Shown here piece after piece: positions 1-4,953 of a DNA stretch of 10,310 nucleotides (position 1 is the first letter of the stretch; every line of letters begins with the position of its first letter). A program made the position numbers and the translations under genes. The stretch is from UHGV virus genome UHGV-0393150. The stretch is one strand, 5' to 3'. This DNA comes from a virus. The notes under the pieces were generated by a model that had not been told where the DNA came from, searched no databases, and saw only the letters and a list, made by a program, of their open reading frames with translations.

Positions 1-53
1 CGGTACGGGGCTGCGTTGAGATAAGAGCCAGTCATTACAAATACCAGCATTTA

Positions 54-79
54 GCCTCGCATTCGCGGGGCTTTTTATT
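54..79 (+). terminator. Putative rho-independent terminator: stem GCCTCGC (54-60), loop ATTC, stem GCGGGGC (65-71), then TTTTTATT
   Basis: Read directly: 7-bp GC-rich stem including one G-U pair, 4-nt loop, followed by a run of five T. A possible upstream gene could end at TGA 17-19. Confidence 0.6.
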
Positions 80-88
80 GCCATTACA

Positions 89-114
89 AAAGCCACTTCC
101 TACGGAGTGGCTTT
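89..114 (+). promoter_or_regulatory. Second hairpin: 11-bp stem (89-99 with 104-114, one G-U pair) and tetraloop CTAC, followed by GATAAT
   Basis: Read directly: AAAGCCACTTC / CTAC / GGAGTGGCTTT. It sits 10 nt after the first hairpin, so the two form a tandem pair in the leader of the HNH gene. Its function (second terminator, RNA-stability element or protein-binding site) is not determined. Confidence 0.45.
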
Positions 115-136
115 GATAATGGCTTATACCCTACAC

Positions 137-158
137 GGGATAACTTAACTGATATCCC
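137..158 (+). promoter_or_regulatory. Inverted repeat GGGATA-N10-TATCCC in the 5' leader of the HNH gene
   Basis: Read directly: perfect 6-bp arms separated by 10 bp, about 26 nt upstream of the ATG at 184. It is followed by the direct repeat AACGGA-TA-AACGGA (164-177), which overlaps the GGAG ribosome-binding site. Candidate operator or RNA structure; function unknown. Confidence 0.3.
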
Positions 159-183
159 TTTTAACGGATAAACGGAGCCAACA

Positions 184-681
184 ATGGCAAAGCTCACAGA
201 CAAACAAGAGCTGTTTGCCCATCCGGATGATGTGTATGTCGGAGAGTGTGTGATTTATACCGGCTACATAAATAAGCGAGGGTATGGGCAGAAGCACATT
301 TCACGAAAGCCGCACTACGCACATCGAATCGCATACTGCGAAGCTAACGGAATTTCGCTAGATAGCATCAAGGACCTGGTTGTTAGGCATAAATGCGATA
401 ATCCATCATGCGTGAATCCTGACCATCTGATTATAGGTACTGTCGCTGACAATAATCGTGACAGGTCAAGGCGAGGCAGAAACTCATACCCTGACCGTTC
501 AGGTGAAAAGAACGGAATGGCGAAATTAAAAGAGTGCGATGTCATCTGCATTCGCCTCGAGTATGTGCGCGGGAGTGTAGGTAATGGGCTTAGGTCTTTA
601 GCAAAGAGATATGGCGTATCCACTACCATGATTGCTGACATCGTTAATCATAGAAATTGGAGCAATGTTTCGGAGGTGTGA
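184..681 (+). CDS. HNH endonuclease (HNH_3-like catalytic region plus C-terminal helix-turn-helix-like tail), phage homing/packaging-associated type
   Basis: ORF of 165 aa with GGAG 6 nt upstream of the ATG. Contains the motif HKCDNPSCVNPDHL (His, Cys-x2-Cys, Asn, His), typical of HNH nucleases. The C-terminal segment LAKRYGVSTTMIADIVNHRNW resembles the DNA-binding tail of phage HNH homing endonucleases. It sits immediately upstream of the terminase genes. Confidence 0.85.
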   Translation: MAKLTDKQELFAHPDDVYVGECVIYTGYINKRGYGQKHISRKPHYAHRIAYCEANGISLDSIKDLVVRHKCDNPSCVNPDHLIIGTVADNNRDRSRRGRNSYPDRSGEKNGMAKLKECDVICIRLEYVRGSVGNGLRSLAKRYGVSTTMIADIVNHRNWSNVSEV

Positions 682-682
682 T

Positions 683-1237
683 TTGAAACAGCTCACACCT
701 AAGCAGGAACTGTTCTGCAGGGAATATTTAAAAGATTTAAACGCCACTCAGGCAGCTATCAGGGCGGGTTACAGCGAGAAAACTGCTCGCGCCACTGGTA
801 GCGAGAACCTGTCAAAACCTGACATAGCAGATCGCATTGCTGAGCTAAAGGCTGAACGCAATGAAGAGGTAGGTATAGATGCTGCCTATGTATTGCGACG
901 GCTGACTGAAATCGATCAGATGGACGTGCTGGATATCCTGCTTGCCAATGGCGAACTGAAGCCGATTAAAGACTGGCCTAAGGTGTGGCGTACAACGCTA
1001 TCAGGAATGGATGTCGTCGAGATGGCATCAGCAGATAGTGCTGCTCTCCTGAAGAAAATCAAATGGCCTGATAAGGTTAAAAACCTTGAGTTGCTCGGGC
1101 GTCATGTTTCTGTTCAGGCGTTTAAAGACAATGTCAAAAATGAAGTGACTGGTGCTGACGGAGGACCAGTCAGAACAGAAATTACCAACTTAACGCCGGA
1201 GCAGGCTGCAGAAGCGTATAAAAAAATGATGGGCTAA
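683..1237 (+). CDS. terS: Terminase small subunit (Terminase_2-like), probably starting at TTG 683
   Basis: The N-terminus [34 protein letters not shown] matches the conserved N-terminal DNA-binding region of phage TerS proteins as I recall them. The open frame extends back to 632 (and an in-frame ATG at 665), but GGAGG at 672-676 sits 6 nt before TTG 683, one nucleotide after the HNH stop (679-681), so I favour 683. Confidence 0.85.
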
Positions 1238-1239
1238 GT

Positions 1240-2862
1240 ATGCCGTTACCATTTCCCTTCGATTTTAAACATCCTGATTACCAGATGGTTTTTGAATGGC
1301 GGATGGAACGCCTACAGCGCATTCGCCAGAATCCTGAAATATTGCCCGTATTGAAGCAGTTTTACCGAACCAATCCGGCTCAGTTCATCATCGACTGGGG
1401 CATGACAACGGACCCGCGTAATATTGATTATGGCCTGCCGGTGACCATTCCGTTTTTACTCTTCCCTAAGCAGGAGGAGTGGATCCACTGGATTATGGAA
1501 CGCTGGGGCAATCGGGAGAATGGTATTACCGAAAAATCCCGTGAAATGGGGCTCAGTTGGACCGCGATCGGACTGGCCTGCTCGCTTTGTCTCTTCAACA
1601 AAGAAATGGTTATCGGTTTCGGCTCCCGTAAAGAGGAATACGTCGACAGCACCGGTGACCCGAAAGCATTGTTCTGGAAGGCGCGCAAGTTCGTGGAAAC
1701 ACTGCCTGTAGAGTTTCGCGGTTCGTGGAGCGAGAAGAAGCACGCGCCATATATGCGTGTTGAGTTTCCTGAAACTGGTGCCGTTATCAAAGGCGAGGCT
1801 GGCGATAATATTGGTCGTGGTGACCGTACCACGCTTTATCTGGTTGATGAGGCTGCATTCCTTCAGCGTCCTCTGCTGATTGATGCGGCGTTGTCACAAA
1901 CGACGCGTTGCCGTATCGACCTGAGTTCAGTTAACGGCATGGCTAACCCGTTCGCTCAGAAGCGTCATGGCGGGAAGATACCGGTATTCACATTCCACTG
2001 GCGGGATGATCCTCGCAAGGATGAAGAGTGGTATCGCAGGGAATGCGAGAAAATCGATAATCCGGTGGTGGTGGCACAGGAACTTGATCTGAACTACAGC
2101 GCATCAGCGGAAGGCGTTCTGATTCCATCCGAATGGGTACAGGCTGCCGTTGATGCACATATCAAACTGGGGATCCAGCCAACAGGCAAACGACTTGGCG
2201 CGATGGATGTCGCCGACGAAGGCAGGGACAAAAATGCCTTTTCCACCCGTCATGGCTTCCTCCTGGAAAATGTGCGGGAATGGTCTGGTGTGGGCAGCGA
2301 CATTTATCAGTCCGTCGAGAAGGTCTTCGGTTTTTGCGAACAGGACAACCTCGAAGAGTTTCGCTTTGACGAGGACGGGCTGGGCGCTGGCGTTCGCGGC
2401 GATGCACGCGCTATCAACGAACTGCGTAACGCTGCGCGCCGACCGTCAATACTCGCCACACCGTTTCGAGGTAGTGGCGCGGTATTTGATCCGGATGATG
2501 AAGCTGTTCGCGGGGACAACGGGCAAGCCGCACGTCTGAACAAGGACTTCTTCGCTAACGCCAAAGCCCAGAGCTGGTGGCGGTTACGTAAACTTTTTCA
2601 GAATACCTGGCGCGCCGTGGTTGAAGGTATGGCTTACAACCCGGACGAAATCATATCAATCAGCAGTAGCATGGCACTCAAAGATAAACTCATCATCGAG
2701 CTTTCGCAGCCGACCTATTCAATTAATGGTGTGGGGAAAATCGTTATTGATAAACAGCCTGATGGAACCCGGTCGCCAAACCTTGCCGACTCGGTGATGA
2801 TCAGCTACGCGCCAATGAATTCAGCCCTGAACATCTGGGAGCTGCTAGGGAGACAGGCCTGA
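1240..2862 (+). CDS. terL: Terminase large subunit (ATPase plus nuclease)
   Basis: 540 aa, directly after TerS (2-nt gap). Has a deviant Walker A-like motif KSREMGLSW (nt 1534-1560), reminiscent of KSARVGYS in lambda gpA, and a Walker B-like hydrophobic run ending in DE ([11 protein letters not shown]). Size and position are typical for TerL. Confidence 0.9.
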
Positions 2863-4328
2863 TGGCACGAAACAAACAAGCCACGCGGCGAACGGCACAG
2901 GCCACCGCTGATGGCTATGAGAACTTTGTCGCCCGCGTGGGGATGCAGACGCCTAACCAGCACTCAGCATCGACCTACCGGGCTAACTTCACCAGCCGCA
3001 ACCGCATGCTGGTGGAATGGTCCTATCGTTCGTCCTGGATCATCGGCGAAGCGGTCGACGCTATCCCGGATGATATGACCCGCAAAGGCATTCGCATCAC
3101 TTCGGAAATTGATGCAAAAGATCGCGGCATTCTCGAATCACAACTTGATGAGTTGCAAATCTGGGATGCGCTGAACGACGTGCTGAAATGGTCTCGCCTC
3201 TACGGCGGCGCGGTCGGCTTCATCATGATCGAGGGGCAGGCACCAATGACCCCGCTGCGGCTCGAAACCATTGGAGAAGGCAAGTTTAAGGGCATTCTCC
3301 CGCTCGACCGCTGGATGATTAACCCGGTCCTGACCCGCCGCATTAAAGAGATGGGGCCAGATCTCGGCAAACCTGAGTTTTACGACGTGGTGACCACTGC
3401 AACGGGCATCCCGGCCTGGCGCATCCATCACAGCCGCCTGATTCGCTTCGACGGGGTGACGCTGCCATTCCAGCAGAAGATGACCGAGAACGAATGGGGA
3501 ATGTCGGTTGTAGAGCGTATCTGGGATCGTCTTACCGCGTTCGACAGCGCTACTGTCGGTGCGGCGCAGCTGGTCTACAAGGCGCATCTGCGTACCTACA
3601 GCGTGGAGAAGCTACGTGAGCTTATCGCACTTGGTGGTCCTGCGTATGAAGCGTTGCTGAAGAATATCGACCTGATTCGACAGTTCCAGAGCAATGAAGG
3701 CATGACGCTCATGGACTCGCGGGATAAGTTTGAAACCCATCAGTACAGCTTCAGTGGTCTGGATGACATCCTTTCACAGTTTGCAGAACAGATTAGTGGC
3801 GCTGTTGGTATCCCACTGGTGCGGTTGTTCGGACAGTCCCCGAAAGGATTTTCTACCGGTGATGCAGATCTTGCCAACTATTACGACCGGGTGAGCTCAT
3901 TGCAGGAGCGCCGCTTACGGATGCCGATGCGCCGGATACTGGACATTATGCACCGCTCGGAACTCGGTAAGCCGCTGCCGGACGATTTCACGTTTGAGTT
4001 TAACCCGCTCTGGCAAATGTCTGATGTCGATCGCTCAACGGTGGCGTTAAATACCACCAACGCAATCAGTACAGCGCTGGGTGATGGTCTGATGACACTG
4101 AAAGCCGCTATGACTGATTTGCGCGAAAATTCTGACGTAACCGGCATCGGGGCATCCATTACCGACGAGGACATCGAGAATGCCGAAGATGAAGCGCCGC
4201 CCGGCATCGGCGAACCTGATGACGAACCGCAGGAACCGTCAGGCGGAAATCCGGTATCGAACCAGCCTACGCAGGATAGCGCGGGCGGTCGGGGACATCG
4301 TAAATGGTCACTACGATGGTTCAAATGA
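2862..4328 (+). CDS. Portal protein
   Basis: 488 aa. Its start overlaps the TerL stop (TGATG). Lies between TerL and the MuF-like gene, the canonical portal position, and has an acidic C-terminal tail. The family was not verified by search. Confidence 0.75.
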   Translation: MARNKQATRRTAQATADGYENFVARVGMQTPNQHSASTYRANFTSRNRMLVEWSYRSSWIIGEAVDAIPDDMTRKGIRITSEIDAKDRGILESQLDELQIWDALNDVLKWSRLYGGAVGFIMIEGQAPMTPLRLETIGEGKFKGILPLDRWMINPVLTRRIKEMGPDLGKPEFYDVVTTATGIPAWRIHHSRLIRFDGVTLPFQQKMTENEWGMSVVERIWDRLTAFDSATVGAAQLVYKAHLRTYSVEKLRELIALGGPAYEALLKNIDLIRQFQSNEGMTLMDSRDKFETHQYSFSGLDDILSQFAEQISGAVGIPLVRLFGQSPKGFSTGDADLANYYDRVSSLQERRLRMPMRRILDIMHRSELGKPLPDDFTFEFNPLWQMSDVDRSTVALNTTNAISTALGDGLMTLKAAMTDLRENSDVTGIGASITDEDIENAEDEAPPGIGEPDDEPQEPSGGNPVSNQPTQDSAGGRGHRKWSLRWFK

Positions 4329-4953
4329 CAGTATCACGGAAATTATTGAGGCGCTGGAACGCTACAGTGAAATCATCACCCCCTGGGCGACAAAGGTCGC
4401 GGAAAACTTTACCGCCGACATTGTGCGCAAGAATGATGAGCAGTGGCGTAAACACAGCAAAACCATCAGCCGTGAGCTCCGCAATCTGGTAAACAGTGCC
4501 CCGCCAGGGCAGGTGATGAAATCCATCGTTGCCGAACAGGTTAAGTACATCAAATCGCTCCCCCTCGAGGCGGCTGACAGGGTGTACGACATCCAGAATC
4601 GGGCGATTGAAGCTGTTGTGACCGGTGGGAGAGCGGAACATTTTGCTAAAGAAATAGCAGCATCGGGTGATATAGCAAAGTCCAGAGCTGACCTGATTGC
4701 CCGTACTGAACTTGGACGTGCAACCGGCGCGCTGGATCAGGCGCGTGCGCTGTCAATTGGTTCGAATGGTTATATCTGGCGTACAGCCGAAGATGGTGAC
4801 GTCAGGCATTCTCATCGGGAAATGGAAGGTAAATTTGTCGAATGGGGCAAACCTCCAACGCTTGACGGCATGACAGGTCACGCTGGCGAGCTCCCGAATT
4901 GTCGCTGTTATAAAGAAATCGTTTTTCCCACCTCCCAATCTTATCCCGCCTGA
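4180..4953 (+). CDS. Minor head / head morphogenesis protein, phage Mu F-like (SPP1 gp7-like)
   Basis: The C-terminal half (TELGRATGALDQARALSIGSNGYIWRTAEDGDVRHSHREMEGKFVEWG...CRCY) resembles the Mu F domain as I recall it. Follows the portal gene as in SPP1-like and Mu-like head modules. Start is uncertain: ATG 4180 (GAGG 9 nt upstream) is the first start in the open frame and overlaps the portal ORF by 149 nt. Confidence 0.8.
   Translation: MPKMKRRPASANLMTNRRNRQAEIRYRTSLRRIARAVGDIVNGHYDGSNDSITEIIEALERYSEIITPWATKVAENFTADIVRKNDEQWRKHSKTISRELRNLVNSAPPGQVMKSIVAEQVKYIKSLPLEAADRVYDIQNRAIEAVVTGGRAEHFAKEIAASGDIAKSRADLIARTELGRATGALDQARALSIGSNGYIWRTAEDGDVRHSHREMEGKFVEWGKPPTLDGMTGHAGELPNCRCYKEIVFPTSQSYPA

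Follow-up and report, generated by a model that had tools for sequence, protein, structure and literature searches.

A probable homing-endonuclease cassette that replaces the 5' end of terS in a lambdoid Escherichia coli prophage

WHO elements are homing elements of Torulaspora and Lachancea yeasts (Coughlan et al. 2020, PMC7282813; Osborne et al. 2026 preprint, 10.64898/2026.08.13.744650). The WHO nuclease cuts sensitive alleles of FBA1, and the old 3' end of the gene stays behind as a fragment with a second use as homology arm; identity between FBA1 alleles is 85% to one side of the junction and 99% to the other (PMC7282813). This strategy was described as unique and as a third category of homing element (10.64898/2026.08.13.744650). 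Here, we analyzed a comparable locus at the 5' end of terS, the gene for the small terminase subunit, in UHGV virus genome UHGV-0393150 (a stretch of 10,310 nt, hereafter the window). The locus is likely to be a free-standing HNH homing-endonuclease cassette which lies inside the 5' end of terS of a lambdoid Escherichia coli prophage and has replaced that end of its host gene. We infer that empty terS alleles are cleaved and that the cassette homes actively.

Free-standing HNH, GIY-YIG, and T5orf172 homing endonucleases of phages (T4 mobE, PMC2790892; ICP1, PMC10448857) resemble the present case in that they are stand-alone genes beside or within essential genes, terminase genes included. Phage homing endonuclease genes cluster at terminase genes, and the region upstream of terminase has been named a hot spot (PMC10448857). 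Variable presence among close relatives, decayed copies, and co-conversion of flanks are further shared features. In contrast, the nuclease described here is fused to the first codons of its host gene, and the cassette brings a replacement start. To our knowledge, free-standing phage homing endonuclease genes sit between genes or split one gene in two. A literature search for a phage nuclease fused to host-gene first codons together with a replacement start returned no precedent, its coverage being incomplete and the absence therefore unproven. Mitochondrial homing endonuclease genes, such as those of rps3-LAGLIDADG fusions and the atp6 i1 intron (PMC7902536), are similar in the in-frame fusion of their open reading frame (ORF) to host coding sequence and in the partial duplication of host sequence at the insertion point; unlike the phage locus, they are organellar, involve LAGLIDADG or GIY-YIG nucleases, and usually lie at the 3' end of the host gene or inside introns.

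In the window, the HNH gene is a 165-codon ORF on the + strand (184–681, TGA stop at 679–681) whose protein starts with MAKLTDKQELFAHPDD. A single base separates its stop codon from the start of terS, which is read in frame from TTG 683, with L/M as first residue. The features of the locus are listed below.

79–183 (+): upstream resident block, the original terS initiation region, with Shine-Dalgarno sequence GGAG at 174–177; HNH translation is now driven by it.
184–220 (+): old terS 5' fragment (haplotype A), comprising codons 1–12 and the first base of codon 13, in in-frame fusion with the HNH body.
184–681 (+): HNH_3 (His-Me finger) endonuclease gene, 165 amino acids, with the nuclease core at about residues 20–100 and a C-terminal helix-turn-helix at about 117–154.
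221–730 (+): inserted cassette relative to the empty site, 510 nt in place of 11 nt (GTGAGTACCTG), from the alignment with the HNH-free loci L002 and L003.
672–685 (+): new terS initiation region, with Shine-Dalgarno sequence GGAGG at 672–676, TGA at 679–681, one spacer base, and TTG at 683–685.
674–700 (+): predicted RNA hairpin, a candidate translational-coupling device.
683–730 (+): re-coded replacement terS 5' end (haplotype B), codons 1–16, presumed nuclease-resistant.
731–786 (+): right-hand homology and co-conversion zone, terS codons 17–34.
683–1237 (+): terS, Terminase_2 small terminase subunit, 184 amino acids counted from TTG 683.

The two gene starts are paired. Positions 190–216 and 689–715 are identical at 19 of 27 nt and at 7 of 9 residues. 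When both strands were scanned, a match of at least 19/27 to the 27-mer 190–216 occurred only once in the window; 3 of 200 shuffles reached 19/27 anywhere in the window, and the binomial chance at a fixed position was 1.8e-6. The top-ranked direct repeat at a spacing of 150–800 was essentially the same pair (191–215 and 690–714, 76% identity, spacing 499). The decisive comparison came from HNH-free prophages, in which the 5' end of the intact terS is identical to window 184–220 at 37/37 nt. HNH-free terS starts retrieved from six enterobacterial genera with the pattern MAKLTDKQ are near-identical to this fragment as well. The original prediction, made from the sequence of the window, had read the HNH N-terminus as a copy of the TerS start, and these comparisons agree with it. 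TerS itself shows a full-length match to its family (Pfam Terminase_2, E=4.8e-41, residues 4–155 on profile positions 1–139; PHROG 51), which starts at the LTPKQ motif.

Window 1–1300 was compared with 5426 complete E. coli genomes using megablast, and a narrower probe (184–800) was used as well. With the longer probe, 13 genomes covered the whole region, and another set contained both flanks in a region about 500 bp shorter; the narrower probe revealed the full cassette in 14 genomes. In total, 14 genomes are occupied, 7 have the last 60 nt of the HNH gene followed by haplotype B, and approximately 36 are empty. ET650, E89, TL20, and others carry an HNH-free, uninterrupted terS, which in ET650 and E89 has the order ATGGCAAAGCTCACAGACAAACAAGAGCTGTTTGCCC-GTGAGTACCTG-AAAGATTTAAACGCC. 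Its first 37 nt correspond to window 184–220, the following 11 nt are not in the window, and identity resumes at 731, so that window 221–730 (510 nt) replaces 11 nt. The cassette meets the resident terS inside the stretch that encodes its conserved helix-turn-helix. The left junction falls within codon 13 (GCC C·GT versus GCC C·AT, where the dot marks the junction). Over 731–1300, the window and ET650 are identical at 566/570 positions, and block 105–220 is identical to HNH-free ET650 at 111/116. Occupied and empty alleles are therefore found in otherwise homologous genomes. The uninterrupted terS expected in HNH-free relatives was present, the proposed in-frame HNH insertion near codon 12 of an ancestral terS could be placed exactly, inside codon 13, and capture of the ribosome-binding site and start codon was likewise corroborated, the upstream block with GGAG 174–177 being common to the empty sites.

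Other origins of this arrangement were considered. The HNH-free alleles cannot be deletion products formed between the two copies in an occupied allele, because they have their own codons 13–16 (CGTGAGTACCTG), which are in neither window copy. An Rfam search of window 1–1400 gave no group I or group II intron match at E<=1, and the stop codon at 679–681 together with a +1 frame change ahead of terS rules out an intein.

The replacement start, haplotype B, differs from empty-site codons 1–16 at 19 of the 48 nt in window 683–730, whereas only 4 of the next 570 nt differ. From codon 7 onward, the differences between haplotypes A and B are nearly all synonymous (AAA/AAG, CAA/CAG, GAG/GAA, TTT/TTC, CGT/AGG, GAG/GAA, TAC/TAT, CTG/TTA). 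Divergence that drops from 40% to 0.7% at one point marks a segment imported from elsewhere, and the downstream copy is a diverged allele of the 5' end which moves together with the HNH gene. The original prediction had invoked duplication of the target segment, leaving TerS with an intact N-terminus: the second copy of the start is there, whereas a simple target duplication in this lineage is contradicted by the 19/48 and 4/570 differences. A recent tandem duplication of the target was rejected on the same counts.

The 80 closest TerS loci in IMG/VR were then sorted by the class of their 5' end. Haplotype A (MAKLTDKQELFAREYLK) accounted for about 22 and a further class, haplotype C (MALTDKQEMFCREYLI), for about 55, with the HNH gene in none of either; haplotype B was found in two loci, both of which contain the HNH gene (HNH+). 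An exact-pattern search of IMG/VR for haplotype B retrieved 12 contigs, all 12 with the HNH 3' end directly upstream (a full-length HNH ORF in ten, the last 60 nt in L023, and an ORF that runs off the contig end in L027). Haplotype B was accompanied by the HNH gene or its 3' remnant without exception in these 12 contigs, in 21 E. coli genomes, and in the Yersinia, Xenorhabdus, and metagenome loci. Its synonymous divergence among lineages is 0–0.22, compared with 0.6–0.9 in the HNH body. Haplotype B is presumed to be resistant to the nuclease.

The HNH protein matches Pfam HNH_3 (E=1.5e-9, 37.8 bits against a gathering cut-off of 24.8) and zf-His_Me_endon (E=5e-7, 30.4 bits against 27). Removal of the first 12 residues left an HNH_3 match of unchanged strength; the 25-residue N-terminal peptide had no match in Pfam, being too short to be informative. 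An alignment of 50 sequences showed that all 14 invariant positions of the family are present, including C22, H47, R48, H69, C71, D72, C76, H81, N90, and D93. The AlphaFold2 model has a mean predicted local distance difference test score (pLDDT) of 86, with a pLDDT of 48 for the terS-derived residues 1–10 and low confidence also in the inter-domain linker. The nuclease fold and separate DNA-binding domain resemble a solved homing endonuclease, the closest fold being I-HmuI (PDB 1u3e; 18% identity), an HNH nicking enzyme of Bacillus phage SPO1; I-HmuI is intron-encoded, unlike the present gene. Between lineages, synonymous divergence (pS) of the HNH gene is 0.6–0.9, near saturation, nonsynonymous divergence (pN) is 0.05–0.22, and dN/dS is 0.04–0.10 where computable. 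The gene is under purifying selection, and the nuclease looks functional.

A start of the KLT.KQELF type had been predicted to be a terS feature foreign to HNH_3, and the homologues bear this out. Among the 120 best HNH homologues, LT.KQ is present at the N-terminus in only 4, all of which are at least 66% identical to the window protein. Alignments with phage HNH_3 proteins at <=47% identity begin at residue 17–22, and the terS peptide is missing from homologues at <=51% identity, among them the free-standing HNH genes of T7-like phages and of other phages. A separate observation concerns one homologue (P0006, locus L016), in which about 75 residues are identical to the window protein and the C-terminal DNA-binding half is unrelated; this could be a domain swap or an assembly chimera (contig of 627 nt, coverage tag 0.388).

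The cassette was also found in other organisms. HNH homologues at 69–82% identity keep the layout of terS-type peptide, HNH body, TGA, one base, and terS start in Yersinia enterocolitica, two metagenomic lineages, the IMG/VR lineage L017, and Xenorhabdus miraniensis (L015), the last of which has the HNH start MAK·HPDD and is devoid of the LTDKQELFA segment. The history of the element is discordant with that of its flanks: it is present on at least six different terS bodies and with three TerL types (Terminase_3 in Yersinia, Terminase_6C in one metagenomic lineage, and TerL with no Pfam match in the window, L014, and L015). Among eight lineages, mean pairwise identity is below 0.4 upstream of 184, 0.66–0.80 in most of the HNH body, 0.90–0.97 over 652–726, 0.83–0.87 to about 786, and about 0.5 beyond that point. 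The N-terminal HNH peptide of L011 and L014 (MALTDKQEM-) follows haplotype C for 29 nt and then continues with the element's GC(T/G)·CA(C/T); this chimeric left junction implies that recombination took place inside the left arm, and it is what entry of the cassette into a C-type terS would be expected to leave. The cassette is both old and mobile. Within E. coli and IMG/VR, it is 99.8% identical in most of the HNH+ loci compared, with TerL/portal flanks at 92–98%, and HNH+ and HNH-free loci are interleaved in terS-body identity. In this comparison, the element is younger than its flanks.

Decayed forms were observed as well. In the seven remnant genomes of E. coli, the 60-nt HNH remnant and haplotype B terS directly follow the lysis gene Rz (e.g., L005 1990–2065; L006 1990–2062), and the IMG/VR contig L023 has the same form. 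Others are a 113-amino-acid partial protein and P0049, in which a KilA-N protein continues in frame into the final 54 residues of the HNH protein. Such forms fit the usual life cycle of homing endonuclease genes.

Comparison with WHO elements revealed several likenesses. Both are neither intron nor intein and sit at one end of an essential host gene. In both, a diverged allelic copy restores that end (683–730 here), its nuclease resistance having been shown in yeast, and the displaced old end remains as a fragment (184–220 here) and homology arm, the arm role being inferred for the phage cassette. Both also show a sharp jump from high divergence to about 99% identity and two gene parts with discordant histories. 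On the other hand, the phage element is a mirror image, replacing the 5' end where WHO replaces the 3' half. WHO nucleases are LAGLIDADG proteins with a zinc finger, whereas the present enzyme belongs to HNH_3 and is not homologous to WHO, HO, or VDE. The old fragment is not junk in our case, since it gives the nuclease its ribosome-binding site, start codon, and first 12 residues. Other differences are the bacteriophage host, the tiny replaced tract (16–34 codons), and the fact that no tandem clusters were seen. By analogy, therefore, the cassette appears to work like a WHO element and is not a member of the WHO family.

How terS is expressed downstream of the nuclease was also examined. Every lineage, Xenorhabdus included, keeps TTG 683 and, six bases before it, a Shine-Dalgarno sequence of the GGAGG type (GGAGA in L011, GGGGG in L021), in line with the proposed translation of terS from TTG 683. 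ATG 665, a start sometimes chosen by the annotation program PGAP, was rejected, as it is lost in L011, L014, and L017. RefSeq annotations of terS are inconsistent in this respect, with ATG 665 (190 amino acids) in E308, PC6, and 5CRE51 and TTG 683 (184 amino acids) in SY3626 and EJN001. The predicted hairpin at 674–700 (AGGUGUGA.UUG…CAG.UCACACCU; -12.4 kcal/mol, z=-3.1 in the window) buries the TTG start of terS together with the stop codon of the HNH gene and the end of the Shine-Dalgarno sequence. The hairpin is conserved in Xenorhabdus (L015, -11.2 kcal/mol) and weakened by one mismatch in L011 (-5.7 kcal/mol). What survives in the remnant lineages is precisely the 60-nt stretch with the Shine-Dalgarno sequence, and a short leader ORF in front of it terminates at this TGA as well. 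A predicted hairpin at the stop/start suggests translational coupling, and translation of terS probably restarts one base beyond the HNH stop. TerS made in this way would have its output tied to the original terS initiation region.

The 5' end of terS is itself unusual at the nucleotide level. In codons 2–16, pS is 0–0.22 within haplotype B, except for L014 and L015, and 0–0.3 within haplotype A across six genera, compared with 0.5–0.9 in neighbouring codons for both. Codons 4–14 of haplotype A form an imperfect inverted repeat or hairpin (CTCACaGaCAAACA-AGAGC-TGTTTGcCcGTGAG, 14-nt arms, z=-2.8; L002 1588–1622, codons 3–14), the 3' arm of which contains the HNH junction. A fold at these codons is also predicted for haplotypes B and C, with different base pairs in each case (window 193–220 and 692–724 were compared). 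RNA structure, a DNA signal, or some other role are candidate functions behind this constraint, which may make the terS 5' site a good homing target.

A mechanism that would account for the locus can be outlined as follows. During co-infection or prophage-phage encounters, the nuclease would cut or nick empty haplotype A or C terS near codons 4–16, and repair would copy the cassette from the occupied genome, with the old 5' fragment (184–220) as left homology arm and the conserved codons 17–34 as right arm. The re-coded haplotype B copy would escape cutting. Ribosomes would start at the original terS initiation region, translate HNH, open the hairpin, and restart at TTG 683 (termination-reinitiation). 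A more specific version, which we put forward tentatively and with somewhat more doubt than belief, is that the element is a phage counterpart of the WHO third category that recognises codons 4–14 of empty terS alleles, which are conserved in nucleotide sequence and form a hairpin, inserts there, immunises the gene with a re-coded 5' end, is expressed from the captured start, and hands over to TerS by reinitiation.

Several observations weigh against such a homing element. An exact search of GTDB representative genomes did not find haplotype B, and a protein-based scan of the same genomes returned only distant HNH_3 genes and HNH-free terS starts. Among isolated phages in the phage collection there is no close relative of the HNH protein (best 47% identity), and all occurrences of the element are in prophages or metagenomic contigs. 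The target site is guessed from where the insertion lies and from how unusually well the site is conserved. As left homology arm, the element has no more than about 37 nt and an upstream sequence that varies. The hairpin at the stop/start is weak in L011, and sequence variation is too low for a covariation test, since haplotype B is nearly invariant and the stems occupy shifted positions in the different haplotypes. The Xenorhabdus start MAK·HPDD, which is without most of the terS peptide, is ambiguous and may represent a deletion, an independent event, or an ancestral free-standing state. Finally, lambdoid phages are highly mosaic, so that presence/absence and discordant flanks are possible without a nuclease.

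This last point leads to the alternative that survives best, which we nevertheless regard as unlikely, namely lambdoid mosaicism without active homing. It assumes that one illegitimate recombination joined the upstream region and first 37 nt of a haplotype A terS to an existing module of HNH gene and haplotype B terS, in which the HNH gene was an ordinary free-standing gene upstream of terS; the junction would have spread by general recombination, and the nuclease may be inactive or have another role. The Xenorhabdus HNH gene, lying directly before a TTG-started terS, does look free-standing, the block before ATG 184 belongs to a known type of mosaic junction and starts another gene in P22-like and HK97-like phages, and the interval between the lysis genes and terS houses various nuclease genes. 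However, at least five lineages share the in-frame junction A·HPDD even though their HNH genes are saturated at synonymous sites, which would not be expected from this history, nor would the strong purifying selection on the HNH gene or the strict association of haplotype B with that gene or its remnant. The element is also more uniform than its flanks, and the replaced segment is a sharply diverged tract like those of proven homing sites (PMC7282813).

A second alternative, that the HNH protein is not selfish but an accessory factor of terminase packaging, placed beside terS for its function, is far less probable. The model for it is HK97 gp74, whose type is also encoded immediately upstream of terS. 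HNH genes beside terminase genes are common and some stimulate cos cleavage (PMC3592412; PMC10448857), and the present gene is under purifying selection and always adjoins terS. The gp74-type factors, in contrast, belong to another HNH family, are conserved, and are needed for cos cleavage, whereas the gene described here is dispensable and polymorphic, which makes a packaging role unlikely. Prophages whose terS is 99% and whose TerL is 94–99% identical lack it, as do 77 of the 80 closest TerS loci, that is, all those with haplotype A or C. The protein is an HNH_3, I-HmuI-like enzyme with a C-terminal helix-turn-helix and not of the short PF01844 type, the cassette is combined with three TerL families, and the remnant lineages retain terS after loss of the nuclease. 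As to the last alternative, that the N-terminal likeness is due to chance or to a native HNH_3 N-terminal helix, many HNH_3 relatives do begin with a comparably long extension that includes a helix containing F/W, and yet the idea was refuted and keeps virtually no credence, given the 37/37 nt identity to empty terS alleles, a chance of about 2e-6 per position, and the absence of the motif from all homologues below 66% identity.

With regard to the surroundings of the cassette, block 79–192, including GGAG and ATGGCA, is 94–97% identical in many P22-like and HK97-like phages (CUS-3, Sf101, epsilon34, and HK544), where the same start codon opens an hkbM / DUF2560 gene before an unrelated terS. 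Sharing with lambdoid phages runs to nt 189–192, and the boundary of the block is a mosaic junction exactly at the start codon. Between the lysis cassette and terS, relatives have a second HNH gene (ET650), a NUMOD4/HNH_3 gene (Yersinia prophage), or a GIY-YIG gene (epsilon34 and g341c); coordinates listed for such genes include L085 4408–4959 and L008 1164–1691. This interval is a nuclease hot spot. Further upstream, window 1–142 has a sub-threshold Rfam match to the Hfq-binding small RNA STnc560 (20 bits against a gathering score of 55), which is cut by the window edge, and a terminator-like hairpin at 53–72 is followed by a T run (53–82). Downstream, the ORF of the Mu F-like minor head protein (4180–4953) overlaps the portal ORF (2862–4328) by 149 nt if ATG 4180 is used; in relatives, it is annotated with either a long overlapping or a shorter non-overlapping start.

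As a protein, the nuclease is an unremarkable member of the HNH_3 family, and the novelty lies in the architecture of the element. The cassette explains the inconsistent annotation of terS starts (ATG 665 versus TTG 683), and it is a warning that the boundary of an element may show up as a short N-terminal match between neighbouring genes. Haplotypes A and B would form a natural pair of sensitive and resistant targets, 48 nt in length, useful for studies of HNH_3 specificity, and mixed induction of E. coli prophages could serve as a tractable test system. More speculatively, the conserved start of terS might double as a signal in DNA or RNA, for instance a pac-related one or a translational operator, in which case an invading cassette would rewrite it. 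Besides residing in an intron or intein, a homing endonuclease gene would have a third mode of life within an essential gene, that of overwriting one gene end with an immune copy. If this is true, a phage case with an unrelated enzyme would mean that gene-end replacement has evolved more than once.

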